Shown here: one piece after another, positions 29,711 through 47,744 of the stretch
Position numbering within the stretch: the first letter of the stretch is position 1
Layout of the letters: the number at the start of each line of letters is the position of its first letter
Source: a virus
IMG/VR virus record: IMGVR_UViG_3300038463_000401
Reading direction: 5' to 3' (one strand)
DNA: 64,000 bases
Program-made: the position numbers and the translations under genes
Notes under the pieces: model-generated
Told to the model about the DNA's origin: nothing
What the model saw: the letters and a program-made list of their open reading frames with translations, nothing else
Database searches by the model: none

Positions 29711-31675
29711 ATGAAGAAGTTTCTACTCTTACTTTTAGCTATGCTGGTCTGCCCGCGCGCAGATGCCGGCCTTACGATGCCCTATACCGACGAGGTGCAG
29801 AACGCCGCGGCCGACGCCAACACGGGCACCACTGCGGGCGAGCTTTTGTCGAATGACTTGACGGCCATCGGCCAGCACCTCAACGTTCCCCTAAAGCTGT
29901 ATTCAACCGGCACTGACTCAAAACTCCATGTCGGTGCTAGCATCGTTTCCGCTGGTGACGGCGCGGGCAAAGTCAGGCCGCCTCTTAGCGGTGCGCTGAA
30001 TACTGCTTGGACTGATACCACCATCGATTTTCAATCGGGTGCGGTCAGCGGCGGTACAATACATACAAACGGCAGTACGTTCGCCTTACCCACTATTACC
30101 ACTGGCCATTACATCACTATGGCTTTGGGCTGGCGCAGCGATGGTACAGTTGACACAAACTTTTCGCCGGATACGTCGACCCTCGGTGCACAGCAGGATG
30201 TCGGTCTGACGTTTCTGCCTCTCGCAGGCGAGCAGAAGCTTGGATACGTCCTGCTTCAGGCCACTGGCGCTGCGGCATACAAGACAGCTGGATCCGCCAC
30301 CGCAATCATCCAGATGGCTGTAAGCGGCTCTCCTACGATTATTAGATTGCTTGACGCGGAGGCGTCGCCACTGACTACTGCGGGCGACCTCTACTACTTC
30401 TCAACTAAAGACGACCGGCTTGCGCTCGGCGCCACCGGTACCGTGCTTCACGGAGGCAGCAGCGCCCCGTCGTACAGCCAGGTCGTGAATGCCGACGTCG
30501 CTACTGGCGCGGCGCTCGCTTGGTCGAAGCTCGCCACCGGCACAGCGAATCAGTTGGCCTATACCAACGGCTCCGGTGTCCTAACGACATCGTCGAACAT
30601 GGCCTATAACGGCTCTCAAGTCACACTCGACCTGACCGACAGCTATGGCGGGTTCAAGGTCAAGGGAGCGAGCGGTGGCGAAGCATCGTTCAGCTTGCAG
30701 CCGGATAACGTCAGCGACGGCGCCACCGGCCAGTGGATCTTCTACACCAACGGCTCAGGGCTCAATAGTCCCAACGACTTTGCCATGTATGACAGCCAGC
30801 TCAGTGCTCCAGCGCTGATACTGCAGTCCTCAACTGCCAACGTCGGTATCGGCACGAACAACCCGCTGTCCAAGCTCTCTGTGGGCGTGGGCAGCGTCGA
30901 CGGTCTTCGGGTCACGTCCTCTGGATCGGGCTATGCCCGCATTTATGGCCCTGGCACAGGCAGCTATAGGAACTATGGCTGGGCAGCAAACTATACATCT
31001 GCCGGACTCTTTGAGCTGCAGCAGTCGACGACCGCCGCCGGTGACCCAACCCTAACCATCATGGGAACGGATGGAACGCACTTCGGCTTTGGCGGTGGTG
31101 CTAGTGGGCTTAATAGCACTCTTAACGTAGACGGCAACGTCAGCGTAGGGAACGCCTACTACGGAACTGCGGCACCGGTCCATGGGATGATTATCCAGGG
31201 ATATTTGGGACTTGGTACAACAAGCCCCAATACGTCGCTCCATGTTAATGGCGGGACGACTATGCAGGGCCTTAGTTCCCCGTCGCTACCTACCGGTAGC
31301 GCGGGCAACGGCGTCCTTTACTTCGATACTGTAGCGGAGAAGTTCCTCTATTCGGAAAATAATGGAACATTCATCTACTGGGACACCCCGGCTGCCGCCT
31401 ACACACTGACCAACCACACGATCAGCGGCACTGCCAATACGCTGCAGAACCTTGCGACTGAAGATGATTTTACCGGTGATGGGACGACAACCAACTTCAC
31501 CCTAGCCGAGACCATGACGGCTACCCGCTTCGTCCAGGTCTTTGTCGACGGCCGAGTCCAACGCGAAGGCGGCAGCTACTCATGGACTCGCACCAATGCA
31601 ACACCTGGCCATATCGTCTTTAATGTGGCCCCGGACAGCGGGTCTTGGGTCGACGTAACGATCGTGAATCAGTAA
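29711..31675 (+). CDS. Fibre-like protein with Sec signal peptide
   Basis: MKKFLLLLLAMLVCPRADA; VGIGTNNP and LGLGTTSP fibre repeats; C-terminal DFTGDGTTTNFTL domain. Confidence 0.7.
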   Translation: MKKFLLLLLAMLVCPRADAGLTMPYTDEVQNAAADANTGTTAGELLSNDLTAIGQHLNVPLKLYSTGTDSKLHVGASIVSAGDGAGKVRPPLSGALNTAWTDTTIDFQSGAVSGGTIHTNGSTFALPTITTGHYITMALGWRSDGTVDTNFSPDTSTLGAQQDVGLTFLPLAGEQKLGYVLLQATGAAAYKTAGSATAIIQMAVSGSPTIIRLLDAEASPLTTAGDLYYFSTKDDRLALGATGTVLHGGSSAPSYSQVVNADVATGAALAWSKLATGTANQLAYTNGSGVLTTSSNMAYNGSQVTLDLTDSYGGFKVKGASGGEASFSLQPDNVSDGATGQWIFYTNGSGLNSPNDFAMYDSQLSAPALILQSSTANVGIGTNNPLSKLSVGVGSVDGLRVTSSGSGYARIYGPGTGSYRNYGWAANYTSAGLFELQQSTTAAGDPTLTIMGTDGTHFGFGGGASGLNSTLNVDGNVSVGNAYYGTAAPVHGMIIQGYLGLGTTSPNTSLHVNGGTTMQGLSSPSLPTGSAGNGVLYFDTVAEKFLYSENNGTFIYWDTPAAAYTLTNHTISGTANTLQNLATEDDFTGDGTTTNFTLAETMTATRFVQVFVDGRVQREGGSYSWTRTNATPGHIVFNVAPDSGSWVDVTIVNQ

Positions 31676-31697
31676 GATAGCAGCACGAGGGGAAACC

Positions 31698-32861
31698 GTG
31701 ATGAAACCATTCTTGATAGCTCTGCTAACAGCCCTGTTCGCTTCGCAAGCGCAGGCGCAAAGCTTGCAGAAGGGCCATACTACCGAGCTCCTGCACGAAA
31801 GCGCGGAAGCCCCTATCGGCGTTATCGTCGGCACGCAGCTGAACAACGTCATCCATGACATTGGGTTGACAGTTGACCAGCCTGGGAGGCTATCTCAGAC
31901 CTGGCCGACGGCCGACGCAGTGCTGCATATCCGCGCGCCGCAAACCACCGCCGGGGATACCTCGGCGCGCTCTGTCGCGGCAACTAACAACTTGGTGCCT
32001 TTGTCCACGACCGACACGACGATTAACTTCCTGACAGGCGGCACCACCGGCGCCACGGTCTATACCAACGGCGGCACGTTCACGCTGCCCACCTCGACGA
32101 TTGGCAACTACGTTCGTATGGTCGCGGTGCTTCAGAAAGACGGCACGATCAATACGAACTTCTCAACGCAGCAAACCACCGTGGCCGCGCTGACCAACCC
32201 CGGCACGCTGCTCGGCTCACTATCGGGTGATCCGCTTGGCTGGCTAGATCTGCAGGCCGTGACCACGACCACCTACAAGTCCGCTGGCGCAGGAACATCG
32301 GTGATCCAGAACTCGGTCAGCGGCACGCCGACGGTCACGAGTTTCGGCTCAGGCGGCGGTGGCGGCAGCGGCGCCGGGTCAAGCTTCATCCTCTGGCACC
32401 CGGTTGACGGCAATGCTCCGATCTATGCGGAAGAGTTCAGCGAGTTCACCTATCAGTTCCCGGCGGGCGGGGGGCAGCAGCTGCGGGGAACGCTGCAGAT
32501 TCCTGGTACGTACATCGCGGGGAATCCCGTAAAGCTGTACTTGTCCCAATATTCTCCTAGCGTTACAGGAACGAGCCTCCTGACGTGCACATCGTACCTC
32601 ATCCAAAAGTCCGCTGCGACAGCAGTCAGCTCGACCACTAACAGCAGGACCTCGACAAACACCGCGATCAACCTCGCGACGCTGGCGGTGGCTAACGGCT
32701 ACTACCAAGTTACCTGCGATGTGACGGACACAACGGGGCACATCAATTCGGTGGCAGTGAGCCCAGGAGATATCTTAGCGGTCTATGTTACTCGCGGGAC
32801 GGATACAGATACCGCGGACCTACGGTTTTTGCCGTCGGCGGTTGGCATATCCCTTCAATAA
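31698..32861 (+). CDS. Signal-peptide protein, paralogous to the N-terminal domain of ORF 29711
   Basis: MKPFLIALLTALFASQAQA; shared DTTI.F..G...G.TI/V.TNG.TF.LPT domain. Confidence 0.7.
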   Translation: MMKPFLIALLTALFASQAQAQSLQKGHTTELLHESAEAPIGVIVGTQLNNVIHDIGLTVDQPGRLSQTWPTADAVLHIRAPQTTAGDTSARSVAATNNLVPLSTTDTTINFLTGGTTGATVYTNGGTFTLPTSTIGNYVRMVAVLQKDGTINTNFSTQQTTVAALTNPGTLLGSLSGDPLGWLDLQAVTTTTYKSAGAGTSVIQNSVSGTPTVTSFGSGGGGGSGAGSSFILWHPVDGNAPIYAEEFSEFTYQFPAGGGQQLRGTLQIPGTYIAGNPVKLYLSQYSPSVTGTSLLTCTSYLIQKSAATAVSSTTNSRTSTNTAINLATLAVANGYYQVTCDVTDTTGHINSVAVSPGDILAVYVTRGTDTDTADLRFLPSAVGISLQ

Positions 32862-32871
32862 CGGTTAACTA

Positions 32872-33681
32872 GTGCAAAACATCATTTACAGCATAAAAGA
32901 CGAAACGGGGCGAGTTCGCTACATTGGGCAAACATCCTTGGGGCCATCTCGTTTTAAACGCCACATCTCTGTGGCAAAAAAGGTTAGGGGCCGCGCTCCC
33001 GCAGTTATCTGGTGGATCAGAAAGCAGCTAGATCTTGGACTTTGCCCTGTCTTTAGCATACTCTACACTGTTAGTGATTCTGAGCAGCTGAATGACCTAG
33101 AGATGATTGCCATTGCTAATTATAGGGCTACAGGGACTGATCTATTAAACCACACTGACGGCGGTGGCGGAATGCGCGGCTTTCGGCTTTCTAAAGAGCA
33201 CGTCGAGAAGATGGCCCAATCAAGGCGGGGTAAACCTAGTTGGGCCAAAGGTATACCAAAACCTCCAGAGGTGAGAGAGAAAATACGCAAGTCCCTATTA
33301 GGTAGGAAGATGCCGGAGGAACAACGACAAAAACTTGCCGTAGCTATGACCGGTACCTCTCGTGGTGTAGGAAGGAAGCATAGCCGGGAGCATTGCGAAA
33401 AATTAAGAAGGGCTGCTCTTGGCAAGAAACGTGGCCCAATGAGCGAGCAGGGTAGAAAAAATATAAGTGCGGCGAAAAAAGGCAAGCGCCTGGGCTACAA
33501 GCATAGCGAAGGGTCTAAGCGTAAGATGAGCGAGAGTCGGCGCGGCATACCCTGTGCCCTTCGCGGCAGAATCTTGCCCGAAGAGACCAAAAGAAAGATG
33601 AGCGAGGCTCGCTATAGATGGTGGGAGCGCGCTAGGATGTCAACGACTACTGACGAGGCAGCCAATGAATCAGCTAATTAA
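32872..33681 (+). mobile_element. Free-standing GIY-YIG homing endonuclease with NUMOD3-like repeats
   Basis: IIYSIK...RYIGQT N-terminal motif; repeated basic units such as HSEGSKRKMSES and LPEETKRKMSEA; visibly more AT-rich than flanks. Confidence 0.85.
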
Positions 33682-36238
33682 ACTTCTCGCGTTCATTCTA
33701 GCATTCGGCAGCAACATTGCTCTTGCGCAGTTCACGCAGGTCCAACGCCAAGAGTTTGGTCCCCAAAACCTACTTGCGCCGTACAACCCAGGTTTTGAAA
33801 ACGGCAAGGCTAGGTGGACGAACACCGGCGCAACATTCACGACGACCACGACGTCGTCGAATGTCGGCTTTGGCACGACCAGCGCTGTCTGGACACCGTC
33901 TTCGACAGGGCAAACGCTGGATAGTACCGCGGTGACGTTGCCTGCGGGCATGCTGGGGGCGAACTGCCTTGCCTCTCTATGGTACAAAGGCGGGGACGCC
34001 AACACGACCTTCGAGGTCTATGACGTCACCTCCAGCGGCATCGTCGCTGGCGCGTCGCAAGTCCTGGCCGCCCAGACCAACTATGCCCCCGTCCTGATCC
34101 CGTTTATCTGCCCAGGCACGCAAGATTCGATCAAGCTGCGCCTGACGTCGACCGCGAGCGGGGCTGCTGTCTATCTCGACCAAGCCTTCCTCGGCACGCC
34201 CATGGCGAACAGCGTCGTCCAGGCGAGCCCTGTGGTTTATAGCCAGGGTAAGACGGCGATCGTCGCGGTCGGTTCGACCGGCAACAACCAAGCCGGCCAC
34301 ATCCTGACGGCGACGGAGTGGCCGTTCACGACGGCAGGGAAACTGGCCTACTACAACTTCTCGTCATCGACGACGACCGATAACTCGGGGGCGCTGTCGT
34401 GCTCTAGCGGAACAGTGGCTTGTACGCTGACCGCGACTGGTCCGCCGACGATTGGCAGCGCCAACATTTTCAATACGGCTAGCGCAGCGCTGACGCTGAA
34501 CGGGACGTCGCAGTATGTCAGCAGCTCAGATTCATTTTTCAACCCAGGTAATGGCAAATCTTTTGATGTCGGCGGTTGGTTTGCAGCTACCAACTGGTCA
34601 TCTGGGGCCGCCCATTATTTGCTGTTCCAAGGGAACACTAGTGACGTCGCTTTCGGTATTTATCTAAATACAGACAATTCCATCAATTTTGCCGCCACCA
34701 ATACAGCTGCTTCGTTTGATACGACCATCAGTATCGCTGCTCCTGGTTTTTCGGCTAACAGTTTTCACCACTTTGCTATGGTCTATAATTATACGACCAC
34801 AACTCTTTATGCCTACATTGATGGAAAGATGGTTGGTAGCGCAATTCAAAGCAATGTGCGCGCGGCATCAAGCGCTAATTTCAAGATAGGTGCGCAAAAT
34901 TCTCAGTATTATTTTGCGGGTGCTATTGAAGATGTTTTCTTCATAAATAATACCGTCATGACGTCCGACGATATCCGCAAGACGATGGCGTTGTCGATCG
35001 CCCACAACAAGAACCTCCCAGCAGCCAGCCAGCTCTGGTCCGGCAACTGGTATCGAAGTGATGCGAACATCGCTAACCAGCTCACGTCGTCTTGGATCGT
35101 GTCAAAGACGCCGAACACGCTCTATGCCGACTTCTCTGACTTCGCTGCCGGGGCCTTCGTCGACTACTCAATGCAGACCTTCGGCATGACGGCGACGACG
35201 GCGCAGTTCACGGGGTATGACTCTGGGTGGCTATCTTCGACCCCCGGTACGACGATCGCGCACGGCCTCGGCGGGGCGCCGGACACGGTGAAGGTACAAT
35301 ACCAGTCTGGTGCGTTGACAGCCGGTGCTTATCAAGAGTTGCCTAGTGGCTCATACTGTTCGTATGACAGTACCAACCTCTATTGCGACTGGACGGGGCT
35401 GACCGTGAGCGGCTCGGCGCAAGTTCGCATCTTGGCGTGGCGCGGAAACGCCAATACTGTAGTGCCCGCCGCTAACGCGAGCACGAACGGGCTTGTCAAC
35501 ACGAGCGCGCAGACGTTTGGCGGGACGAAGACTCTAAGCGGAGGCGTATTACTCCCCATAGACACGGTGTCATCCGCAAACTATGCCATGACAAACTCTG
35601 ACGGATACGCTGAGGTTGATGTCAGCACTGGATCGTCGCAGCGCACCATTACATTGCCGAATCCGTCTCAGAACGTCGGCCGAAAGATCACGATCAAAAA
35701 GACTGACAGCGGCGCTGGCACGGTGCTGATTAATCCATACGCTTCGGAGACGATCGAGGGGGCGTCGAGCAACACGCTTAACGCGCAGAATAGCTTCGTG
35801 CGGCTCTACACCGATGGTACCAACTGGTTTAGTGAGGGATCTTGGGACTTGCTATCTGCCACAGGAGCTGGATCACCATCTAATGGCAATTACGTCAATA
35901 GTGCTAGCCTGTCTTTGCCTCCCGGTGTCTGGTCAGTATCTGGCATGGGTGAGTTCAATCAGGGTGGCACACAGCTCGGCACTCCGGGCATTCTAGCGGT
36001 CGGTATTTCTACATCATCGTCATTGCTAGATTCGACCAGTAGTGGTGGTTTCTTTGCGACATTTGGTGTCAATACCATCATTACTGCATCAAACACCGGA
36101 CGCTTCCCGGTTAACCCGCGCATCTTTAGTTTCACGTCGGCAACGACGGTCTATCTTGTTCAGCGTATCGACTACGGTACTTTAAACGGTTTCGCTTTTG
36201 GCGCTGCTACCAATATGGCAGCTATTCGGTCGAAATAA
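33665..36238 (+). CDS. Signal-peptide adhesin-like protein with LamG/concanavalin-A-like domain
   Basis: MNQLIKLLAFILAFGSNIALA; LTLNGTSQYV...FHHFAMVYN...YIDGK...FAGAIEDVFF; TITLP...IKKTD...TIEG...DGTNW domain. Confidence 0.75.
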   Translation: MNQLIKLLAFILAFGSNIALAQFTQVQRQEFGPQNLLAPYNPGFENGKARWTNTGATFTTTTTSSNVGFGTTSAVWTPSSTGQTLDSTAVTLPAGMLGANCLASLWYKGGDANTTFEVYDVTSSGIVAGASQVLAAQTNYAPVLIPFICPGTQDSIKLRLTSTASGAAVYLDQAFLGTPMANSVVQASPVVYSQGKTAIVAVGSTGNNQAGHILTATEWPFTTAGKLAYYNFSSSTTTDNSGALSCSSGTVACTLTATGPPTIGSANIFNTASAALTLNGTSQYVSSSDSFFNPGNGKSFDVGGWFAATNWSSGAAHYLLFQGNTSDVAFGIYLNTDNSINFAATNTAASFDTTISIAAPGFSANSFHHFAMVYNYTTTTLYAYIDGKMVGSAIQSNVRAASSANFKIGAQNSQYYFAGAIEDVFFINNTVMTSDDIRKTMALSIAHNKNLPAASQLWSGNWYRSDANIANQLTSSWIVSKTPNTLYADFSDFAAGAFVDYSMQTFGMTATTAQFTGYDSGWLSSTPGTTIAHGLGGAPDTVKVQYQSGALTAGAYQELPSGSYCSYDSTNLYCDWTGLTVSGSAQVRILAWRGNANTVVPAANASTNGLVNTSAQTFGGTKTLSGGVLLPIDTVSSANYAMTNSDGYAEVDVSTGSSQRTITLPNPSQNVGRKITIKKTDSGAGTVLINPYASETIEGASSNTLNAQNSFVRLYTDGTNWFSEGSWDLLSATGAGSPSNGNYVNSASLSLPPGVWSVSGMGEFNQGGTQLGTPGILAVGISTSSSLLDSTSSGGFFATFGVNTIITASNTGRFPVNPRIFSFTSATTVYLVQRIDYGTLNGFAFGAATNMAAIRSK

Positions 36239-36248: not shown

Positions 36249-36836
36249 ATGATCCGCATCCTTCTCTCCATCCTCCTCCTGCTCTCCACGACGGCCCGCG
36301 CCGACGACGTGCAGGGGATTTTCTACAACGCCGTGACTGGACAGGTTTCGGCTAAGACACGAGCAAACGGAGATAAACTTTTAGACCAGACGGCGTTGGC
36401 AGCCGACGCGATTTATACGTGCGACATCCTCTCGAATTTTGCATCTGGATGGAGCAGCAGCTCGAATACCTACAACACCAACTCTTCAACAAACAAGTAC
36501 ATAGACACGCTTAGTAGTTATAGTGGCACTACGTGGACTGCCAAAGTTGCTGGCACCTATCGCGTAACAGCAACCGGATACATCACCAAGACCTCGGGGA
36601 CGTTCACCACAGGCGATGCTATCGCTGCCGCCTTTATTAAAAATGGCTCGATTTATGGAACTGGGCAGAATGTCGATGGCTCTGGCGCCGTAGCTACCAA
36701 CCCGTACACGCTGACAGGATTTATTCCCATGGCTGTCGGTGACACGTTGATTGTCAGATTGGGCTGGAACGGCACTGGCGGACATACGTTCACTGGCACG
36801 GTAACCTATGCCTGCCTCACTGTTTCACGTCTTTAA
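36249..36836 (+). CDS. Signal-peptide protein with C1q/TNF-like domain
   Basis: Start revised to ATG 36249 (AGGGAG RBS): MIRILLSILLLLSTTARA; WTAKVAGTYRV...FIKNG...MAVGDTLIV. Confidence 0.65.
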   Translation: MIRILLSILLLLSTTARADDVQGIFYNAVTGQVSAKTRANGDKLLDQTALAADAIYTCDILSNFASGWSSSSNTYNTNSSTNKYIDTLSSYSGTTWTAKVAGTYRVTATGYITKTSGTFTTGDAIAAAFIKNGSIYGTGQNVDGSGAVATNPYTLTGFIPMAVGDTLIVRLGWNGTGGHTFTGTVTYACLTVSRL

Positions 36837-36930
36837 TTGAGGTGACTATGAACCGCATCCTAATCCTATGCCTGCCTCACTGTTTCACGTCTTTAATTAA
36901 GGAGCACCCATGAACCGCATCCTAATCCTA
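36805..36930 (+). repeat. Imperfect tandem duplication of a stop-RBS-start junction (period about 60 bp)
   Basis: CCTATGCCTGCCTCACTGTTTCACGTCTTTAATT at 36805 and 36865; ATGAACCGCATCCTAATCCTAT at 36848 and 36910; the RBS segments between them differ. Confidence 0.9.
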
Positions 36931-37503
36931 TTCCTCGCCATCCTCTCCACGTCGGCGCAGGCGACTGGTGTAGATATCCCTGCGGCAAAAAACCTCACGG
37001 GGGGAAAGAGCTGCCTCTATAGCGGATCAAGCGCCGAGGTCTGTGCCGCAACGGCCGGTACAGCGCCGAGTGGCAACGTCGTCGGGACGTCGGTGACGAT
37101 TAAAACGTCAAGCGGCGTGAACGTCACGTCCGGGACGCAGGCTTATCCGATCTTCGGATCGGCGTCGGTCCCAGCTGGTGTCTGGTTGCCTTGTGTAAAT
37201 ATACAGATTGTCGATACAGGCACCGCCACGGTCAACGAGTCAGATGCCATTGGGTTCACTACGGATAGCAGCGCGACGACATGGAGTGACCTAGATCTTA
37301 CGGGCATCACGAATTCGGTTACGCCAAGCGTCATATTGGGGGGTGCAACGCTGACAGCCACGCAGATTCGGTGGGGCGCCGGTTCGTGTTTTCCACCGAT
37401 TACAGTAGCGTCGCCGACTACTTATTATTTCAAGTCGATCAATCGTGTGACCTCTGGGACGCTGACATATAACGGATTTTTGACATTCACCCGCGTCTAC
37501 TGA
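36910..37503 (+). CDS. Signal-peptide protein with fibre-tip-like domain
   Basis: MNRILILFLAILSTSAQA; SVPAGVWL...PTTYYF resembles the C-terminal SLPPGVWS...ATTVYL domain of ORF 33665. Confidence 0.65.
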   Translation: MNRILILFLAILSTSAQATGVDIPAAKNLTGGKSCLYSGSSAEVCAATAGTAPSGNVVGTSVTIKTSSGVNVTSGTQAYPIFGSASVPAGVWLPCVNIQIVDTGTATVNESDAIGFTTDSSATTWSDLDLTGITNSVTPSVILGGATLTATQIRWGAGSCFPPITVASPTTYYFKSINRVTSGTLTYNGFLTFTRVY

Positions 37504-38336
37504 TGCGCTCTCTAGTCTTCTCCGGCGAAGGCGCCAAGGGCGGCTTCCAGGCCGCCATTGCTTTACAGCGTGCGCAGCAGCCTGATCTAGTAATCGGCAC
37601 CAGCTCGGGCGCGGTTAATGCTGTCGGCTATGCTTACCTAGGCCCGCAGGGCCTGGTAAATCTATGGAAGACGATCAATAGCACCAGCCAAGTCTTCCGG
37701 CTGAGCGTGCTGGACGCGCTGGTAGGCAATGGCCTCTACTCGTCAGCGCCGATCAACAAGATCCTTCAGGATGTGATCTACGATAACAAGCCGTCCTGCG
37801 AGGTGATCGTAACGCGCGCCAGTGACGAGACCGGCGCACTCGAATACGTCTCTAATCGTGCCGTAGGCACAGATGAATTCTATGAGGCAGTCTGCGACGC
37901 CATCGCCATCCCCGCAGTGGTCGACCATCCCGATGGATTTGTTGACGGCGTTGTCGGCACGGACTTGCCGCTCAGCTATGCAATCCAATGCGGCGCTACC
38001 GATCTGACCGCGATCATAGGTACACCGCCTATTCCGTATGCCGTTACCTCCAAGGCATGGCCGGTGTTCGACTTCATCAGCCGCGGCTACCGGTTTGTCG
38101 ACCTCCTCCTAAACCAAGTCATGTTTGGGGATCTTGCAGTTTGCACTCTGCGCCAACAGATCAACCCATCGATTACCCTACGGGTATACGGGCCGAGGGG
38201 GTATCTCTTCGAGCCACTTGACTTCGCGAGTACAGTTCATGGCGTGGAAATGGCTATGTCTGGCCAGTACGGAGAGTGGATTTACTCATCTAAAGGCTGG
38301 CAGTTCTCTGGTACACTTGGGGGGTATCCCTTCTAG
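37503..38336 (+). CDS. Patatin-like phospholipase
   Basis: LVFSGEGAKG glycine-rich loop, GTSSG nucleophile elbow, FVDGV catalytic Asp motif. Confidence 0.85.
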   Translation: MRSLVFSGEGAKGGFQAAIALQRAQQPDLVIGTSSGAVNAVGYAYLGPQGLVNLWKTINSTSQVFRLSVLDALVGNGLYSSAPINKILQDVIYDNKPSCEVIVTRASDETGALEYVSNRAVGTDEFYEAVCDAIAIPAVVDHPDGFVDGVVGTDLPLSYAIQCGATDLTAIIGTPPIPYAVTSKAWPVFDFISRGYRFVDLLLNQVMFGDLAVCTLRQQINPSITLRVYGPRGYLFEPLDFASTVHGVEMAMSGQYGEWIYSSKGWQFSGTLGGYPF

Positions 38337-38345
38337 GAGGCCCCC

Positions 38346-38750
38346 GTGCAAGACACTACCGCCTTGTCCAACGAGGCGCTTCTCGCCATTTTCGCGGCAA
38401 TCCAGGTGTTGTCCGTCGCCTTGTCAAAGGTAATCGACTATTTCGTTGACAAGAGCAGACAAGACCCTGTCGAGGCGAAGATCGATAAGCTTCTTGAAAA
38501 TGATGATGAGCGCCAGGAACATATCAAGTCCAACTACGATATGTACCGCATGATTGCCGACATGTACGCGATGCATAAAGTGATTGACGACGAAGGCCGT
38601 CCGGTATGGTACTTCCCTAAGAAAATGCTGGATATGGCGGATAAGCATCTTGAGCTGCTGCGCGACATTTCCAATGCGCAGAAGGAAACAGCCTCAAAGA
38701 TGGAATCGATTGTTAGTCAACTTATGTGCATAAAGGCGAAGCATGACTAG
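38346..38750 (+). CDS. Membrane-anchored coiled-coil protein (holin/spanin-like position)
   Basis: N-terminal hydrophobic segment ALLAIFAAIQVLSVAL followed by a charged helical region. Confidence 0.5.
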   Translation: MQDTTALSNEALLAIFAAIQVLSVALSKVIDYFVDKSRQDPVEAKIDKLLENDDERQEHIKSNYDMYRMIADMYAMHKVIDDEGRPVWYFPKKMLDMADKHLELLRDISNAQKETASKMESIVSQLMCIKAKHD

Positions 38751-39687
38751 GTTATTTTTAATTTCATTAATAATCGCCTTGGCAGGCTGCCATAAAGCAC
38801 CGTCAGCTGTGGACAGCAACGGGCTACCAGCCCCGGAAGACGTCTCCCACTTCGACAGCCAGTTTGCCACCATCGCCGGCCTAGCCATGCTCCACAACAT
38901 CGACCCTAACGGGCAGATTGCTTTAAGCACGCCGGAGGGCGGATGGGCGGACCAGGGCGATAGCTTCTTCTTTACCGGGCTGACGCTGGCCGCGTTTGAC
39001 TGCGCCCCCGGCACGCCGCTACTCGCGGTGATCCTGAAAGGCATTTACGACAACGGCGGCATGATCCCGAGCCACAACCCGCTGCTACCCAACTTCACAG
39101 TCACGTCGCGCGACCAAGTCACCGGGGTCATGCTTGGCCTTGTAGAGCGTTGGCGCCGCTGCCCTGCCGATAGGCCTGCAATCGCGGACGCTTGGCGCGC
39201 GCACATCGCGTATGTCGCCGCCAACGGCGGCAACCTCGGCCCCACCGCGGACGCGGACATGCTCAGTTTGCGCTGGCTGTGGGGCCAAGTCGGTCAATAC
39301 TTCGGCGTTGGCGGCGCCGGTGGTTCAGAGGATTCCTTTGAGGTGAGCCTCGTAGCCACGGCTGCGAGTATCAACGCAGCGCACAGTGCTTGCTACCCCG
39401 TTCATACTGGCACACTGCAGGCGATCATCGCGGCCAAGATCCATCAGCCGATCGCGGGTAAGGGTGCGTTTTGCGACGCAACCCGCGGACTTGGTTTACC
39501 ACTCACTGAGTGGATGTGCGGCCGCGCAACCGGCCAATCCTGGCTTAAGCAGTTCGAGCCGGATGTGTGGATAGACCAAAATCAGCGCTGCCCCAACTGG
39601 GAAGGCAAGCCGGATGCCGGCGGCAATATGACGCCGGGTGTTGACTTCTTCGAGGTTTACCGATTAGCCGCAGAAGGCAATAGCTGA
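38743..39687 (+). CDS. Predicted lipoprotein of unknown function
   Basis: MTRLFLISLIIALAGC lipobox; Cys-rich helical body. Confidence 0.7.
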   Translation: MTRLFLISLIIALAGCHKAPSAVDSNGLPAPEDVSHFDSQFATIAGLAMLHNIDPNGQIALSTPEGGWADQGDSFFFTGLTLAAFDCAPGTPLLAVILKGIYDNGGMIPSHNPLLPNFTVTSRDQVTGVMLGLVERWRRCPADRPAIADAWRAHIAYVAANGGNLGPTADADMLSLRWLWGQVGQYFGVGGAGGSEDSFEVSLVATAASINAAHSACYPVHTGTLQAIIAAKIHQPIAGKGAFCDATRGLGLPLTEWMCGRATGQSWLKQFEPDVWIDQNQRCPNWEGKPDAGGNMTPGVDFFEVYRLAAEGNS

Positions 39688-39712
39688 CAAGCCTTTCCAG
39701 GGAGTGTACAAT
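39684..39712 (+). promoter_or_regulatory. Host sigma70-type promoter
   Basis: CTGACA (39684-39689), 17-nt spacer, TACAAT (39707-39712). Confidence 0.55.
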
Positions 39713-39758
39713 CAGGCTCTCTGTGCCCACTTTTTACCCACTTGGGGAGGATTATCCA

Positions 39759-40082
39759 ATGGTGACGGACGTAAATAACGTGCTTATCGGCTTGAACGAA
39801 GTCGCTCTTCAACTCGTCAAAGGCATGAAAGACGGCGTGCTTGGCGATTTCGAAGCGTTCTGGTCTGCATACCAAAGCAACCCGGACTTCCAAGCGCGGC
39901 TGCAAACCGCCTATCAAAGCCTGGCCGCCTGCCCGGCCGAACTCTCCGGCCTTGGCGTCGGCGACTTCGTCACCCTCGCCGCGACGGAAGTCGGCTACAT
40001 CCCGCAGTTCATTGCCGCGCTGGCTCAGCCCGCTCCGGCCGCCGCGCCGACGCCGGCCGCTGATCCCGCTCCCGCAGCTTGA
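39759..40082 (+). CDS. Small helical hypothetical protein with Pro/Ala tail
   Basis: GGGGAGG RBS before ATG 39759; flanked by its own promoter-like element and a hairpin. Confidence 0.7.
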   Translation: MVTDVNNVLIGLNEVALQLVKGMKDGVLGDFEAFWSAYQSNPDFQARLQTAYQSLAACPAELSGLGVGDFVTLAATEVGYIPQFIAALAQPAPAAAPTPAADPAPAA

Positions 40083-40148: not shown

Positions 40149-40610
40149 GTGGTTCTTTCTCTCGATCAAGTGAACGCCGGCGTCCCCTTCCTCCCGGGGC
40201 GCGCTCGCTACAATATCGTGACGGATCGCAGCTCTACCTGGGTATCGCATACGATGGCCACGGGCGCTGCGCTTGACGGCACGTACACCCAGACTGCAAC
40301 TCAGTCTGACCCGACGCAGATCGACCCCGTCGTCACCGGCGGCGCCGCAGGATGGACGAACCTGACCCATGGCGGTCTCTTCACCATGCTCGCGGATACT
40401 GGCCGGGAGATCTTGATTGAGGGCTTTACTAACCAAGCAGGGGCTACATTCAGCACGGTTGACCAAAGCGGCAATGTGCTGCGGTCTACGCTAGACCTCT
40501 CGGTCTTGCCGGTTAAGCTTGCCCCCTACGAAACCATCAAAGCGACGGGCGGCGCCACCGGCGGTAAGGTCGCGTTCCTGGTCCGTTACGACTGGGCGAC
40601 GATCCTGTGA
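40149..40610 (+). CDS. Hypothetical beta-rich protein
   Basis: CAGGAG RBS; coupled to the next gene. Confidence 0.6.
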   Translation: MVLSLDQVNAGVPFLPGRARYNIVTDRSSTWVSHTMATGAALDGTYTQTATQSDPTQIDPVVTGGAAGWTNLTHGGLFTMLADTGREILIEGFTNQAGATFSTVDQSGNVLRSTLDLSVLPVKLAPYETIKATGGATGGKVAFLVRYDWATIL

Positions 40611-41215
40611 AATACCAAGGACAGCTAGCCCAAGTAGCGATCCGCCTCTTCGACACACTGGGCGTCCCCGTAACTGGGGTGCTTTACAGCGCGGTCACCG
40701 CGAAGATCTGGAAAGCCGGAACCTTGGGGTTTGTGCCCAAAACCCTAGCGTCCGCGGATTGGCTAGAACTCGGCTACGGCATCTACATCATCAACTTCTC
40801 CCCAACAGACATGAACACCCTGAGCACGTTTGCCTACTACCTGACTGGCGCGGGCTTTGTGCCATACTGGAACACCTTTGATGTTACACCGGCGCCGCTA
40901 AGCTTGCTGGCGAACACCCCCCTGTGTGTCGTCACCGGCAACGTCGTCGACCTAGGAGGCCAGTCCTTCTCGGATCAGAACCAGAACCTCGTGATCTCGT
41001 TCCGCATCGCGAACGTGCCGCAGTCGGTCGGTGGAACCAGCATCGTCTCTTCGAAGTTGCTGACGACGACTACCGACGCCTTTGGCAACTTCTCTGTCGC
41101 CATCTTGCAGGGCGCCGTGGTTATCGTGGAGATCGCCCCACTCGGTCTACGGCAGAAGATCACGATACCCGCGACGACAAGCGCAACTCTTCTTAGCCTT
41201 CTTCCCCCGTTTTGA
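40607..41215 (+). CDS. Hypothetical beta-sandwich protein, paralogous to the C-terminus of ORF 48634
   Basis: CVVTGNVVDL...GNFSVAILQGAVV.VEI versus CVVQGIVTDL...GRFNLPLLQGALV.IEI. Confidence 0.65.
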   Translation: MKYQGQLAQVAIRLFDTLGVPVTGVLYSAVTAKIWKAGTLGFVPKTLASADWLELGYGIYIINFSPTDMNTLSTFAYYLTGAGFVPYWNTFDVTPAPLSLLANTPLCVVTGNVVDLGGQSFSDQNQNLVISFRIANVPQSVGGTSIVSSKLLTTTTDAFGNFSVAILQGAVVIVEIAPLGLRQKITIPATTSATLLSLLPPF

Positions 41216-41238
41216 TAGCATGGGTACCAACCATAGCT

Positions 41239-41266: not shown

Positions 41267-41290
41267 GTAAGGGTTATCGTGTGGACAGGA

Positions 41291-41434
41291 TTAGGTTGTT
41301 TGAGCAAATGTGCGGTTGACGAACAGAACGGCGAGAGCGCAAAGGCCTGCTCGCACGACATCCTTAGCAATAGCCTTAGCTGAAGGTTTGCAGGCTGAGA
41401 GCAGCGACAGGAACCAGGACCAGACCTTCTTCAT
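41291..41434 (-). CDS. Unannotated 47-aa membrane peptide / possible small lipoprotein
   Basis: Manual translation MKKVWSWFLSLLSACKPSAKAIAKDVVRAGLCALAVLFVNRTFAQTT; AAGGG RBS; downstream terminator. Confidence 0.6.
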   Translation of the reverse strand: MKKVWSWFLSLLSACKPSAKAIAKDVVRAGLCALAVLFVNRTFAQTT

Positions 41435-41465
41435 GACATGCCCTTAATTTATATGATATTCTTTC

Positions 41466-41480
41466 CAAGTTACTTATACC
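41466..41480 (+). promoter_or_regulatory. Candidate phage-specific promoter CAAG-TTA-CTTATACC
   Basis: Second copy of the motif, at a divergent junction 16 nt before ATG 41497. Confidence 0.6.
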
Positions 41481-41496
41481 CATAAAGGGACGGAAA

Positions 41497-42582: not shown

Positions 42583-43273
42583 GGTCAACGACCCCAAAGG
42601 GCTGGACGCCCTGCGCACAGCCAAGGCCGCGGTCAAGTTCGCAGAGAACCCGCAGAAGGCAGTCGTGCGCGCCATCGTCCGCTCTGCTCTTGAAAAGAAC
42701 GGTGGGCTTTCCCCGTTGAAGATATTTTCAATGTTGAACGACCACTACGGCCACGAGTGGTGGGACTGGGAGCCCGAGACCATCTGGTCAACACTCGCCG
42801 CACAGCACGGCCTGGCAATTACGCCAGAGCTGCGTAACATCGTCGGCGCCCTTCAAACTACGCTGAACACCAACTTCGCGTTCGAGCTCTGGCACGTCTT
42901 TGAAAAGACCGGGCTGGCCTTCAATCTGCATCACGTCGACCCTGACGTGGTGCAGCCGCTCGAGCCGAATGAAGCCTCGCTCACAATTTTCATCCTAAAA
43001 ATGCTGAGGCCGAAGCTTGACTTCGAGCCCGATGTGCTTGGCTATGTTGCCGCGCTGTGCCACGAGGCCGGCCTGGTCTATGCTCCGCCTGAGCTCTTCG
43101 GCCCCGTTGGCGCGCAAGGCTGGCTGGAGAAGATTGCCCCCGACCATAGCGGAGTTGGACACCAAACCGCGATGGCCTGGCCGCGCAAGCCTAGCGAAAG
43201 CGACCCGCCTGCGCTTAGAATACAGCTGGCCCGGCTCCATGAGATTAAAGACTATGTAAAAGCGAGGTTATAA
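42569..43273 (+). CDS. Hypothetical helical protein
   Basis: ATG 42569 overlapping the upstream gene end preferred over 42485; stop coupled to the next start. Confidence 0.6.
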   Translation: MAQPEVNDPKGLDALRTAKAAVKFAENPQKAVVRAIVRSALEKNGGLSPLKIFSMLNDHYGHEWWDWEPETIWSTLAAQHGLAITPELRNIVGALQTTLNTNFAFELWHVFEKTGLAFNLHHVDPDVVQPLEPNEASLTIFILKMLRPKLDFEPDVLGYVAALCHEAGLVYAPPELFGPVGAQGWLEKIAPDHSGVGHQTAMAWPRKPSESDPPALRIQLARLHEIKDYVKARL

Positions 43274-45459
43274 TGCGCAAGCTCTTACTGGCCCTGGCCA
43301 TCCTTGGCTTCGCTCCTACCGCGATGGCGGACACACCACCAGCACGAGTTATCAATGCTGAAGCATACGATGCTGCGGGTAACCCTATCGGCAGCACCAG
43401 CGGCAGCCTCAACGTCAACGTGACGAATCCGACTGGTCTGCCTGCGGGGGCGTCGACCGCCACGCTTCAGACCGCGGGGAACACCACGCTATCCTCGATT
43501 GACACCGCGCTCAGCTCGGTTTCGACCGCGGCCAATCAGGCGTCTGAAATAACCTACCTCAACGACATCAACGGTAAGATCTCGGCCTTCAACTTGAACA
43601 CGAGCGGCGCCGAATACGACCAGGGCGTGTCGCTGCGCTTCGCCTCCCCTGGTGGCTCAATCCCGGCCGGTGTCGATGCAAACCCCCTGCGCGTAGACCC
43701 CACTGGAACGACGACTCAGCCCGTAAGTGCCGATTCGCTTCCGCTGCCTACTGGAGCGGCAACGGAGTCGACGCTCTCCACCCTCAATGGGAAGCTGACG
43801 ACAACGTCGAATGGGATCAAGGTGGACGGCTCAGCGACAACCCAACCAATCTCGGCCTCCGCGCTACCTTTACCGACGGGTGCCTCAACTGATGCCACGC
43901 TCAGCGCCCTCAGCGCCAAGCTAGGCACGCTCGGGCAGAAGGCCATGGCGGGCTCGGCCCCGGTCGTGATCGCCTCTGACCAGGCACCCATCCCGGTGTC
44001 CGGTACGTTCAGTGCCACGAACCCGTCCATTGCCACGAACGGCTCGGCCATCCCGGCGAGCTCTACCCAGGTGGGCGGCAAAGACAACTCAGGCAACCTC
44101 CAGCCACTTCAGCTGACGTCCACCAAAGCCCTGATCGTGGACGCCTCGGCCACCACGCAGCCCGTCAGCGGGACGTTCTGGCAGGCCACGCAGCCTGTCT
44201 CAGGAACGATCGCCGTCTCGAACCTCCCCGTCACTCAGCCGGTGAGTGTAGCAAGTCTGCCTCTGCCAGCGGGTGCGGCAACGTCCGCCCTACAAAGCAC
44301 GGGGAACACCTCGCTCTCCGACATCGACACCAAGCTCCCTGCGCTTGTCAGCAGCCGTGTCCCCGTGGACGGATCTGGCGTAACTCAGCCAGTTAGTGGC
44401 ACGTTTTGGCAGACGACACAGCCCGTAAGTGGCACGGTCACGGTCAACCAGGGAACGGCTGGCGCCTCGGCTTGGAAGGTAGACGGGTCCGCAGTGACGC
44501 AGCCTGTCTCCGGCACCTTCTGGCAGGCCACGCAGCCCGTCAGTGGCACCGTGACGGCCAACGCCGGCACAGGGACGTTCGCGGTCAGCGCCGCGAGCCT
44601 CCCGCTTCCGACCGGTGCCTCGACGGCGGCTAAGCAGCCAGCGCTCGGCACGGCGGGTACGGCCTCCACAGATGTCATCACGGTGCAGGGCATCGCGTCC
44701 ATGACCGCTCTGAAGGTGGATGGCTCAGCTGTTACCCAGCCCGTCTCCGGTACCTTCTGGCAGTCGACCCAGCCGGTGAGCGCGGCGAGCTTGCCTCTGC
44801 CAGCCGGTGCGGCCACCAGTGCGCTGCAAACGACCGGCAATACGTCCCTCTCCGACATCGACACGAAGACGGCAACGCTCGTCAGTGGTCGCGTGCCAGT
44901 TGACGGGTCCGGTGTGACCCAGCCCGTGAGCGGGACGTTTTGGCAGGCCACCCAGCCCGTCAGCGGCTCAGTCAGCGTGTCCAATTTCCCTGGCTCGCAG
45001 GCGGTCACTGGGACCTTCTGGCAGTCCACGCAGCCGGTGAGCCTGGCAACCGTCCCACTGCCCTCGGGAGCGGCCACGTCCGCCAATCAGGCGACGGAAA
45101 TCTCGTCGCTGTCGTCGATCGCGGCCTCGGTGGCGGCGCCCCAGGCAAGTCCGGTGGGCCGGAGCTATGCCGACAGCATTAGGAACGTCTACAGTTCGAC
45201 GACGGTCGGGACGGTCAGTTGGGTGCAGGTGAGTGCCTCCACGGCCGCCACCATGAATGTCGTGTCGATCTTCGACAGCTGCGGGCAGGTCCTGGAGCTT
45301 GGTGTTGGTGCCCTGGGCAGCGAGGTGCGGAAGACGCTCATCCCGCCCGGCGGCCTCTACAACTGGCCCCTTCTGATCCCAGGAGGCTCGCGCATATCGC
45401 TGCGGGCGGTAAGCGCGACGTGCTCCAAAGGAGAATTTGACATGACGGGTCTCAATTGA
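43273..45459 (+). CDS. Signal-peptide repeat-rich fibre-like protein
   Basis: MRKLLLALAILGFAPTAMA; repeated TQPVSGTFWQ.TQPVS and LPLP.GAATSA.Q.TGNTSL units. Confidence 0.75.
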   Translation: MRKLLLALAILGFAPTAMADTPPARVINAEAYDAAGNPIGSTSGSLNVNVTNPTGLPAGASTATLQTAGNTTLSSIDTALSSVSTAANQASEITYLNDINGKISAFNLNTSGAEYDQGVSLRFASPGGSIPAGVDANPLRVDPTGTTTQPVSADSLPLPTGAATESTLSTLNGKLTTTSNGIKVDGSATTQPISASALPLPTGASTDATLSALSAKLGTLGQKAMAGSAPVVIASDQAPIPVSGTFSATNPSIATNGSAIPASSTQVGGKDNSGNLQPLQLTSTKALIVDASATTQPVSGTFWQATQPVSGTIAVSNLPVTQPVSVASLPLPAGAATSALQSTGNTSLSDIDTKLPALVSSRVPVDGSGVTQPVSGTFWQTTQPVSGTVTVNQGTAGASAWKVDGSAVTQPVSGTFWQATQPVSGTVTANAGTGTFAVSAASLPLPTGASTAAKQPALGTAGTASTDVITVQGIASMTALKVDGSAVTQPVSGTFWQSTQPVSAASLPLPAGAATSALQTTGNTSLSDIDTKTATLVSGRVPVDGSGVTQPVSGTFWQATQPVSGSVSVSNFPGSQAVTGTFWQSTQPVSLATVPLPSGAATSANQATEISSLSSIAASVAAPQASPVGRSYADSIRNVYSSTTVGTVSWVQVSASTAATMNVVSIFDSCGQVLELGVGALGSEVRKTLIPPGGLYNWPLLIPGGSRISLRAVSATCSKGEFDMTGLN

Positions 45460-47744
45460 AGAAAAATCTGCTGCTTGGCCTGATGGCGTTCTTCAGCGCG
45501 ACTGTTGCCTTGGGACAGGGCAACCCGGCCTATTACGCCGGCTCGCTCATGCAGATCTATCCGACGACAGGCATTTACCTGGACACGAGCCGCACCCTGC
45601 GGTTGGGGTCCGACAACGGCACGAACTATGTCGAGCTTGGCGCTCCGACGGGCATGTCAAGCAATTGGAGCTTAACGATGCCATCGACAGCCGGAAGCTC
45701 CGGGCTCCCATTGGTCACCGATGGTTCAGGCAATGCGTCTTGGAGCCTGGGAAATCAATCGTCGGCGTTAACAAGCGGGTACCTGTCTTCTACCGACTGG
45801 AACACGTTCAACAATAAGCAAAGCTCTCTGACTTTTGGGTCAATCAGTACGACCACAACAGGCGTGACGATCGGCAGCGGAAACAACTCTACGGTCGGGC
45901 CTAATGTCACAGTGAACATTCAAACGGCGAGCACGTCTCAGCCAGGCATTTTGGCTGCGGCAGATTGGAATACGTTTAATAATAAACAGCCATCCGGGAA
46001 CTATATCACTGCGCTGACAGGCAACGTGGTGGCGAATGGACCGGGTAGCGTGAGCGCTACCATTCAGGCCAACGTAGTTTCAAACTCGATGTTGTCGCAA
46101 ATGGCGACCAACACCATCAAGGGTAACAACACCGGATCGACCGCCAACGCTGCTGACCTGACCACGGCGCAAGTCGCGGCCATCTTACCAGCGTTTATTG
46201 GTGATAGCGGCGCCGGCGGAACACAAGGCCTTGTTCCTGCTCCTCCGACTGCCTCGCGGCAATATGCCGACTACCTATCGGCCAGCGGAAGCTGGGCATA
46301 TGTCGATCAAGCTCAGCCGATATACCCGGCGTTCAGCTTTGTAAATCAGACAGCGTCACCGCTGACAGCCACAAAATATGAAAACGTCGCTGTCTATACT
46401 GGCATTGATGGGTACAAGCAATACGCTGCGATTGTCGCTGGCGGCGGTACTGGTACTCTTTTTATCTACGACGTGACCGATCCAAATATCCCTGTGTACA
46501 TCAACAAAATTGTATTGTCGGGGGCATACAATTTATCCATTGCCACAATATCTGGATCGGTTTACGCGTTCATTCCTTCTAGTGGTGGATCGACTCTTTA
46601 CATTGAAAACATCACAAACCCATATTCGATCAGCACCTATTCGAGCCTTGCCTTAAGTGGTAGCCCAGGTGCTCTATACTCTTGCCAATACGCCAACGGG
46701 TATGTCTATGTCGCAACACAAAACAAGGGATTGACGGTCGTAGACGTTGGCGGTGGACTGGCTGGCGGCACACTTGCCGTGCCAATCCAAAGCTTCCAAG
46801 AGGGTGGCACAACCAACAAAACAGCGGGCGTCGCCGTCAGCGGAAACTACGTTTACACAACCAACTATCAAACGAGCTTTCCTGCCACCGTTCGATATTT
46901 TAAAACCTGGGAACTAGCGGCAGGCGGCGGCACTCTTGCCGTACCGTTTCTTGCCAATACGTTCACCGTCGCTGGTGGTCCGACAGGAACTTCAAGTAAG
47001 CCTCAGGGAGTTTCGATCAGTTCGAGCGGCACGACGGCCTTTGTCACCGACGGAAATCAGTCAGTTTACGATATTATTGATATCACCACGCCGACCAGCC
47101 CAGTCTATTTGACGTATGTGACACCCACTTTTCCAACGGTCCCCAACAACACGCTCGGCGTGGCCATTCAGAGCGGAAACTACCTTTATATTTCAAGTGG
47201 AGCCAATGCCACATACGGCGGCGCCATAGACTTCTTTGACATCACGAATAGATCTAGTCCGGTAAAAATCAGTACGGTTTACAACAACGACCCTTCGTCG
47301 CCATTTGGCGGCATCGCACTGGCCAATGGGTACATTTACGTTGCCGACTACGGTTCTGCAGCTGGTTTAAGTTATCTCGATATCTTCACTCAGCCTCAGA
47401 TGAGCGTTCCATTTGGCAATCAAGTCGGTTCAACACTTTCTGTAAAAGGACTCACTGAGGGAATAACTCCAGTGACGGCCTCCTATACAGCGCTTACCAC
47501 CGACACCACGATCATGGCCAACGCATCGGCGGCCGCCTACACGGTCACGCTTCCAACTGCGGTAGGAATAGCTGGTAAGATCTACAACATAAAGAAAACC
47601 GACAGCAGTGCCAACGCCGTGACTGTTGGAACGACTTCGTCTCAAAACATCGAAGGCAGCACGACATATTCATTATCTGTGCAGTATAAATATGTTGACG
47701 TGATAAGCGACGGAACGCAGTGGTGGGTGATTGGAAACAATTAA
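45456..47744 (+). CDS. Signal-peptide protein with fibre stalk and LVIVD-like beta-propeller
   Basis: MKKNLLLGLMAFFSATVALG (TTG start); two DWNTFNNKQ repeats; repeats such as LFIYDVTDP, YVYVA..GLTVVDV, YIYVAD...LSYLDI; C-terminal TLP...IKKTD...IEG...DGTQW domain. Confidence 0.75.
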   Translation: MKKNLLLGLMAFFSATVALGQGNPAYYAGSLMQIYPTTGIYLDTSRTLRLGSDNGTNYVELGAPTGMSSNWSLTMPSTAGSSGLPLVTDGSGNASWSLGNQSSALTSGYLSSTDWNTFNNKQSSLTFGSISTTTTGVTIGSGNNSTVGPNVTVNIQTASTSQPGILAAADWNTFNNKQPSGNYITALTGNVVANGPGSVSATIQANVVSNSMLSQMATNTIKGNNTGSTANAADLTTAQVAAILPAFIGDSGAGGTQGLVPAPPTASRQYADYLSASGSWAYVDQAQPIYPAFSFVNQTASPLTATKYENVAVYTGIDGYKQYAAIVAGGGTGTLFIYDVTDPNIPVYINKIVLSGAYNLSIATISGSVYAFIPSSGGSTLYIENITNPYSISTYSSLALSGSPGALYSCQYANGYVYVATQNKGLTVVDVGGGLAGGTLAVPIQSFQEGGTTNKTAGVAVSGNYVYTTNYQTSFPATVRYFKTWELAAGGGTLAVPFLANTFTVAGGPTGTSSKPQGVSISSSGTTAFVTDGNQSVYDIIDITTPTSPVYLTYVTPTFPTVPNNTLGVAIQSGNYLYISSGANATYGGAIDFFDITNRSSPVKISTVYNNDPSSPFGGIALANGYIYVADYGSAAGLSYLDIFTQPQMSVPFGNQVGSTLSVKGLTEGITPVTASYTALTTDTTIMANASAAAYTVTLPTAVGIAGKIYNIKKTDSSANAVTVGTTSSQNIEGSTTYSLSVQYKYVDVISDGTQWWVIGNN

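Follow-up and report, generated by a model that had tools for sequence, protein, structure and literature searches.

In textbook accounts the assembly of tailed phages takes place entirely in the cytoplasm, and tools that predict hosts or engineer receptor-binding proteins assume the same. A 64,000-nucleotide stretch of viral DNA (IMG/VR record IMGVR_UViG_3300038463_000401; hereafter the window, meaning the whole stretch analysed) raises the question why a phage would place Sec-type export signals on a block of fibre-like genes, and where the products would go. In the window, which is a late region of an uncultured phage with a parent contig of 177,025 bp, the genes are closely packed and all read in one direction. 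Baseplate-type genes (with a weak Baseplate_J match) occupy its left end and are followed by leaderless fibre genes (21959-29434), the leader-bearing block, a portal gene at 49633 and a gene for an RNA polymerase of 2,882 amino acids (aa). The original prediction, made from the letters of this DNA, had assigned export signals to eight open reading frames (ORFs) between 29711 and 47744. We followed up these signals and propose that the proteins that carry them may act on the envelope of the infected cell.

Predicted Sec leaders on eight late genes

Leader calls were rule-based throughout. The translated starts of all 44 window genes were scanned for three features: an n-region of net positive charge, a stretch of 8 residues with a mean Kyte-Doolittle value >=2 within an uncharged run and, shortly after this hydrophobic stretch, small residues at positions -3 and -1 (the c-region). 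ORFs 29711, 31698, 33665, 36249, 36910, 38743, 43273 and 45456 were flagged (8/44), and ORF 48634 was a weak, borderline ninth case. When every internal position was taken as a start, the same rule responded at 33 of 15,023 positions (0.2%). All eight N-termini for which export signals had been claimed were thereby confirmed; the companion claim, that the upstream genes at 21959-29434 have no such signals, also held, none of the baseplate and fibre genes from 19678 to 29434 being flagged.

The leaders are 18-21 aa long (15 aa to the lipobox cysteine in ORF 38743), with a basic start, an uncharged core of 12-17 aa and an AxA-type end. Seven ORFs, including ORF 45456 when read from a TTG start, possess the three regions expected of a Sec signal peptidase I (SPI) substrate, namely a basic n-region, an h-region of ~7-15 residues and small residues at -3 and -1, in a total of ~18-25 aa. 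In ORF 38743, residues 13-16 (LAGC) conform to the signal peptidase II (SPII) lipobox, for which we required a short leader ending in [LVI][ASTVI][GAS]C and conservation of the cysteine. Ribosome sites of the GAGG or AAGGAG type precede most of the eight starts. A membrane-anchor reading was rejected because the hydrophobic runs of 12-17 aa are below membrane-span length. Tat export was rejected as well: the leaders hold KK, RK or a single K/R and no twin-arginine motif (S/T-R-R-x-F-L-K).

Most of the proteins behind these leaders look like fibres. ORF 29711 (29711..31675, +) encodes a fibre-like protein of 654 aa with a 19-aa Sec leader, an N-terminal domain (the N-domain, ~aa 20-230), a fibre segment and a C-terminal GDG domain. 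ORF 31698 (31698..32861, +; 387 aa) has a 20-aa leader, the same N-domain (38% identity to ORF 29711 over aa 1-210), a Gly linker and a jelly-roll tip resembling carbohydrate-binding modules (CBMs). Its AlphaFold2 (AF2) model, built from 41 sequences, reached a predicted local distance difference test score (pLDDT) of 86.8 and showed at residues 4-15 a helix that is detached and modelled with low confidence, then a beta-rich N-domain, the linker and the C-terminal jelly roll; the last matched many carbohydrate-binding modules at Z 9.0-9.6. ORF 33665 (33665..36238, +; 857 aa) has a 21-aa leader, a LamG/concanavalin-like domain and two close cysteine pairs. ORFs 36249 (36249..36836, +; 195 aa) and 36910 (36910..37503, +; 197 aa, 4 cysteines) have leaders of 18 aa; the ATG at 36249 is preceded by an AAGGAG-type site, as deduced from the translation. 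ORF 43273 (43273..45459, +; 728 aa) combines a 19-aa leader, a DTPP start, TQPVSG/FWQ repeats and a C-terminal beta domain with 2 cysteines. ORF 45456 (45456..47744, +; 762 aa) has DWNxFNxK repeats, an LVIVD/beta-propeller region and a C-terminal fibre-tip domain behind its leader.

Fibre or receptor-binding modules were recognised by membership of the N-domain family, by a central segment of ORF 29711 common to the leaderless phage protein P0003, by the DWNxFNxK repeats, by a match of a cassette homologue to phrog_11393 and by a Peptidase_S74 domain in a related protein, L014_5436. The C-terminal tip domain of ORF 45456 recurs in annotated fibres of cultured phages, and a Thermocrinis virus protein annotated as 'T7 tail fiber protein' has it too. 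ORFs 33665 and 45456 share a domain of ~65 aa. No relatives of ORF 36249 were detectable. None of the eight ORFs matched PHROGs, and Pfam returned only LamG, LVIVD and a weak T7-fibre match; a PDB sequence search with four of the proteins gave no match, and in cultured phages tblastn detected nothing beyond small tip domains held in common and an irrelevant match to an Aphanizomenon phage. Protein-atlas look-ups returned viral clusters only, plus a beta-propeller lead. The description of all eight as fibre-region proteins fits three of them poorly: ORFs 43273 and 45456 belong to a mobile cassette adjoining the portal gene, and ORF 38743 encodes an enzyme-like lipoprotein in a lysis block.

Closely spaced cysteine pairs, which had been reported for several of the exported proteins, do exist, and both quoted pairs (CSSGTVAC and YCSYDSTNLYC) lie in ORF 33665. 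The eight mature proteins would contain 0, 2, 6, 2, 4, 6, 2 and 1 cysteines, an even number in 7/8 that is suggestive of pairing; across the two wider families no bias to even numbers was seen. In both families compared, cysteine density is ~1.8x higher in leader-bearing than in leaderless members, which lends weak support to folding outside the cytoplasm.

ORF 38743 (38743..39687, +) encodes a lipoprotein of 314 aa whose lipobox cysteine is invariant in 8/8 homologues, as are six further cysteines. A short lipobox-type leader is present in 6/8 of them (one with F at -3); in the 2/8 divergent homologues the aligned cysteine lies ~40 residues in, after an insertion. The AF2 model is all-alpha (pLDDT 83.4), and its fold resembles the (alpha/alpha)6 barrels of glycoside hydrolases (GHs). 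It matched GH8, GH15 and GH65-type barrels with VIA Z of 12-13.4 over ~250 aa, a score that helical folds can reach by arrangement alone, and Foldseek with the model gave no match at E <=0.001. TSRDQ and D/E positions are conserved among the homologues. The protein is probably an envelope-degrading lipoprotein. Identification as a spanin was rejected: an o-spanin would be a small, proline-rich lipoprotein of the outer membrane paired with an i-spanin, and a u-spanin would have a membrane span at its C-terminus, whereas this globular all-alpha barrel has 314 aa and lacks a hydrophobic span at that end. An Llp/Cor-type identity was rejected on size and fold.

Origin and spread of the leader-bearing genes

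We compared the region with three related phage contigs for which DNA was available (L001, L014 and L015). Among 5.8 billion proteins searched, ORF 29711 had only two real relatives, and a scan of IMG/VR with it found none. The orthologue (P0002; L001) is 64% identical, and its leader differs in sequence while keeping the properties and the ADA|G end. In the same region L001 has three further leader-bearing ORFs plus the lipoprotein, and L014 and L015 have leader-bearing fibre-like genes just upstream of a conserved pair of genes, for a protein with a single transmembrane (TM) segment and for the lipoprotein. Across the orthologues in the three contigs, leaders are conserved in property rather than in sequence.

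Domains of these relatives occur on leader-bearing and on leaderless proteins, indicating domain movement. The domains of ORF 33665 recur in L001 on proteins of both kinds. L014_3364 combines a leader with the C-terminal domain of the leaderless ORF 28219 and a GDG domain, and L014_5436 combines a leader with the self-chaperone domain Peptidase_S74. ORF 28219 itself matches tail PHROGs (4e-36); a metagenome scan with its alignment found no relative.

The N-domain of ORFs 29711 and 31698 was used as a profile against 1.84 billion representative proteins. The search recovered 442 clusters, 143 of them below 1e-30, that share a domain of ~190 aa (GxTDE...PLRLYAS) followed by a variable distal part and sited in fibre modules. 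Leaders were counted in the 148 best hits, leaving out the window's own protein and P0002. In ~135 of these the N-domain begins at residue 2-5 with no leader; the leader-bearing ones numbered 11 by rule and 13 by eye, and in each the leader is fused exactly before the domain. The original prediction had named homologues that mostly lack leaders as a result that would refute it, and this is what the N-domain family showed. Conservation of the leaders as a whole is therefore divided: they are kept in the orthologues of L001, L014 and L015 and throughout the DTPP subfamily described below, and are absent from ~90% of the best members of the N-domain family.

In a FastTree phylogeny of 137 domains, the 16 leader-bearing rows fell into two clades, that of the window with a support of 73 and a second, of ten, with a support of 97; the tree requires a minimum of three state changes. 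Leader-bearing members thus form two supported clades, which indicates that the trait is inherited and is not noise. One of the second-clade proteins is encoded among the fibre genes of L016, a 132-kb phage contig of 41.6% GC that also carries a leader-bearing protein of the DTPAP type. From these sequence comparisons, we consider the leader a derived, inherited add-on to a standard N-terminal fibre domain.

A natural counterpart without the leader is present in L001. At 11514-14363 this contig encodes a leaderless 949-aa paralogue of the leader-bearing N-domain fibres, adjoining a leader-bearing one. The paralogue reads Met-Pro-Gly and is then aligned from the first residue past the predicted cleavage site of the others. 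Its ATG has a ribosome site ahead of it, and the reading frame is closed by a stop codon two codons before this ATG, so the absence of the leader is real.

ORF 43273 has thousands of homologues, of which the 119 best were examined. In 25/119 the mature protein starts with D/E-T-P-P, and in 25/25 of this DTPP subfamily a leader of 14-25 aa ends in A, G or S directly before that motif. Other homologues that share the repeats have ordinary leaderless N-termini. The DTPP protein is part of a recurring cassette, in which it is usually joined by a second leader-bearing protein; a leaderless relative of ORF 47766 of ~120 aa comes next, and often another leaderless protein of ~118 aa. In the window, ORF 47766 (47766..48365, +) encodes a leaderless partner of 199 aa with a conserved N-terminal domain of ~95 aa, and a leaderless ORF of 90 aa (48365..48637, +) is the fourth cassette gene by position only. 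Proteins of the ORF 43273 type are present in L004, L005, L007-L010, L014 and L016; the second cassette gene is leader-bearing in L004, L005, L007, L008 and L009, and homologues of ORF 47766 trail the leader-bearing genes in L007, L008, L009, L010, L014 and L016.

The position of the cassette varies. In the small E217/Pam3-like myophages L005, L008 and L009 it follows a complete leaderless tail-fibre gene of ~365 aa, and in small myophages this gene is present with or without the cassette adjacent. In L007 the cassette is downstream of lysis genes; in L010 it separates the portal gene from the Mu-F, DUF2213, cement and major-capsid genes; and in the window it is just upstream of the portal gene. 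The GC content of cassette loci spans 42% to 64%. A search of 185,579 species-representative bacterial genomes with the DTPP alignment found no copy, and the cassette thus appears resident in lytic-type phages. ORFs 43273, 45456 and 47766 belong to a mobile cassette, which occurs also beside tail, lysis or head genes in unrelated phages; its presence in different modules and phages is in keeping with an accessory module that does not have any single baseplate as its partner. The mature form of L005_11959, a second-gene product, matches only positions 308-536 of a 538-position tail-fibre PHROG, and by this alignment the protein is the distal half of a fibre behind a leader. In L010, a 43-kb phage contig, the genes for a DTPP leader-bearing protein of 1,280 aa and for a protein like ORF 47766 are inserted between those for the portal and the Mu-F-like head protein (9932-16168). 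The C-terminal domain of ORF 43273 is matched in addition by a separate ORF of 101 aa.

Possible fates of the leader-bearing proteins

Export is the simplest reading of these leaders because they look like textbook signals, keep their properties among relatives, have exact boundaries and are passed on within clades. We consider it likely that all eight ORFs are exported by Sec, seven as SPI substrates and one as a lipoprotein; the export originally suggested is, at the level of sequence, well supported by leaders that are kept in orthologues, present in 25/25 of the DTPP subfamily and cleanly delimited.

For the destination we propose, with a probability of about one half, that the exported proteins act on the envelope of the infected cell and are not built into virions in the cytoplasm. 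The phage would have added Sec signals to ordinary fibre or receptor-binding modules and to one enzyme. Late in infection the leader-bearing proteins would be translated with the structural operon and cross the inner membrane; the leader would be removed, and folding would take place outside the cytoplasm. Their lectin-like and propeller tips would then bind envelope glycans or receptors; such binding could mask or trim these against superinfection and the loss of progeny on debris, or could make the cell sticky, and the glycosidase-like lipoprotein (ORF 38743) would help to break the envelope at lysis. Cleavage, the target and absence from the cytoplasmic assembly line are, like export itself, predicted here from the leaders and modules. 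We favour an envelope role because the cassette moves among phages of differing virion architecture and among gene modules, because complete leaderless fibres are present alongside it while L005_11959 consists of a leader plus a distal half, and because lectin-like tips occur together with an enzyme-like lipoprotein.

Several observations weigh against an envelope role and point to the virion. The extreme N-terminus is the usual place of the virion-attachment domain of a fibre, and in ~90% of its family the N-domain is there, beginning within the first few residues with no leader before it. Within the window the N-domain occurs only on leader-bearing proteins, which argues for virion membership. 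At the other end of ORF 29711, aa 587-650 give a weak PF03906 match resembling the N-terminal domain of the T7 fibre, so that this C-terminal domain appears related to the tail-binding domain of that fibre and is found also on leaderless neighbours. One of these, ORF 29434 (29434..29703, +; conserved in L001), is a leaderless protein of 89 aa that consists of a single GDG/T7-gp17-N-like beta domain. The original prediction had seen the same GDG domain in ORFs 29711, 23498 and 29434; homology holds for ORF 29434 (hhalign 94%, E 1e-7), and for ORF 23498 the likeness is in the motif only.

These points can be read as two-compartment assembly, in which true virion fibres would be exported, cleaved and folded in the periplasm and would dock onto fibreless or partly fibred particles at or after lysis. 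We give this a minor but real chance, second to an envelope role. In its favour, the window copies of a canonical N-terminal domain of a large leaderless fibre family are all leader-bearing, ORF 29711 shares its GDG domain with the leaderless neighbours (23498 by motif), and L014_3364 places a leader on a combination of the C-terminal domain of fibre 28219 and the GDG domain. Trimerisation would be possible without cytoplasmic chaperones in a leader-bearing protein with Peptidase_S74 (L014_5436), the strictly conserved DTPP could be a docking peptide exposed only by cleavage, and the genes sit in the late structural operon. Against these stand the side-by-side occurrence in L001 of leader-bearing and leaderless proteins with the same N-domain, the dilution that joining after lysis would suffer and the spread of the DTPP cassette over differing tail and head architectures and modules. 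Because the cassette-bearing phages differ in architecture, a common baseplate socket is unlikely unless it travels with the cassette. Our literature search brought up no account of tailed phages with leaders on their fibre modules, and we know of no precedent in tailed phages for the docking of exported fibres. A host-recognition apparatus made in part beyond the cytoplasm, by export, cleavage to a docking end (e.g. DTPP), periplasmic folding and joining to DNA-filled particles at lysis, is doubtful.

The fibres might instead reach the outer surface of the infected cell, perhaps via a host secretion system, and serve there as adhesins. They would tie the cell to neighbouring hosts or surfaces so that progeny are released beside new hosts, as a phage-encoded analogue of the mosaic adhesive trimer (MAT) fibres of a predatory bacterium. 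The MAT-like layout (leader, beta-rich N-domain, fibre, variable tips, and S74 on some) and the swapping of modular tips between phages are consistent with this; however, a Sec leader reaches the periplasm only, and Pfam revealed no outer-membrane anchor, autotransporter or sorting domain. We consider display of this kind improbable and rank it third. Last, and very unlikely, is that the N-termini are not export signals at all and are either retained helices of virion proteins assembled in the cytoplasm (for trimerisation or membrane contact) or start-codon artefacts. Most N-domain homologues do function without a leader. The basic n-region of ORF 45456 exists only from the TTG start, which overlaps the preceding stop codon as TTGA, and the public gene call on the identical contig begins at an ATG nine codons downstream (45483) and lacks it; we retained the TTG because the equivalent cassette genes in other phages carry a clear leader. 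The even number of cysteines seen in the window is also absent at the family scale, where leader-bearing members had 7 even and 6 odd counts in one family and 19 and 17 in the other (not significant). Nevertheless, the three regions of a signal peptide are present, with A at -1/-3, and are conserved in property in the orthologues and in all of the DTPP members; the hydrophobic segments fall short of the length of a membrane span, the helix at the start of the ORF 31698 model is detached and of low confidence, most starts are backed by ribosome-binding sites, and the lipobox cysteine is invariant.

Phage genes with Sec or lipoprotein signals that lie beside receptor-binding genes and act on the envelope, for instance by blocking a receptor, are known from T5 (Llp), T1/phi80 (Cor) and lambda (Lom and Bor). 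Those encode single small non-fibre proteins, whereas the window encodes seven modular fibre-like proteins (195-857 aa) and an enzyme-like lipoprotein, late-expressed. The wider family of N-domain fibres (442 clusters at 50% identity, all uncultured) has the same ~190-aa domain at the mature start; its members differ in that ~90% of them are without a leader, the window copies belonging to one of only two leader-bearing clades.

In layout, the closest published system is the MAT fibres of Bdellovibrio bacteriovorus, which are exported fibre-like trimers (Caulton et al. 2024, PMC10769870). They resemble the proteins described here in the signal peptide, the conserved beta-rich N-domain directly after it, the phage-fibre-like shaft, the swappable tips, the presence of Peptidase_S74 on some members (here in the relative L014_5436) and the many paralogues per genome. 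MAT genes are, however, chromosomal genes of a predatory bacterium whose products are on its own surface, and the genes of the window are late-operon genes of a lytic-type phage. WceF of Pantoea stewartii is an exported glycanase of the tailspike fold that acts as a trimer on envelope polysaccharide outside the cytoplasm (PMC7949094); it differs in being bacterial and in having a Tat leader, and so is exported already folded, whereas the window leaders are without the twin-arginine motif. Matrishin et al. 2023 described Porphyromonas phage genes of unknown function with host-adapted Sec leaders and read them as envelope modifiers (PMC10367356). Those phages are prophages of a Bacteroidota host, with no fibre or tail proteins named and no modular fibre block. 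The present analysis adds a count of leaderless members across a whole family, the grouping of the leader-bearing ones in two clades, a naturally leaderless paralogue and a definition of the DTPP cassette as a mobile unit.

Ordinary fibre modules have gained secretion signals at least twice and retained them, and unrelated phages exchange a leader-bearing cassette. Should the envelope be where the proteins act, they would represent a large and unexplored group of phage factors that mask receptors, remodel glycans or make cells adhere. Should they dock onto virions, the pathway of assembly would need revision, no such route being known for any tailed phage. Either way, studies or uses of leader-marked proteins should express them with export and not cytoplasmically, and the A|DTPP family provides an easily searched handle on hundreds of such genes.

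Lysis block and other neighbouring genes

The lipoprotein gene lies in a lysis-position block (37503-40082) together with genes for a patatin phospholipase, a single-TM protein and a protein of 119 aa. The patatin-like phospholipase (37503..38336, +; PF01734, 1.9e-8) has no leader and starts the block; a patatin gene is found at the same place in a related contig, and L001 has none at that position. The next gene (38346..38750, +) encodes a protein of 134 aa with one hydrophobic segment, in a holin-like position, and this single-TM protein adjoins the lipoprotein in L001, L014 and L015 too. No recognisable endolysin was found within the 64-kb window, and ORF 38743 may be a wall- or envelope-degrading enzyme of a lysis block without a recognised endolysin. 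In L001 (17135-19533) an Amidase_2 gene is located three genes downstream of that for the single-TM protein.

Between two of the leader-bearing genes lies a GIY-YIG/NUMOD3 homing endonuclease gene (32872..33681, +; Pfam NUMOD3 3e-13, GIY-YIG weak), an insertion that is outside the system. The fibre module of L016 has a GIY-YIG gene at a similar place (6909-7595). Such endonucleases among fibre genes may aid the movement of fibre cassettes between phages.

Two leaderless proteins, encoded at 40607-41215 and 48634-49632, share a domain of ~95 aa (36% identity, E 3e-9) that is related to the carboxypeptidase-regulatory fold by a weak PF13620 match; both proteins are kept in L014 and L015. In the fibre protein of 1,318 aa encoded at 23498-27454, aa 1039-1159 are an internal copy of the domain that forms the product of the next gene (27451-28014). 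This shared domain is Phage_cement_2-like, the two copies are 41% identical, and the same pair is present in L001.

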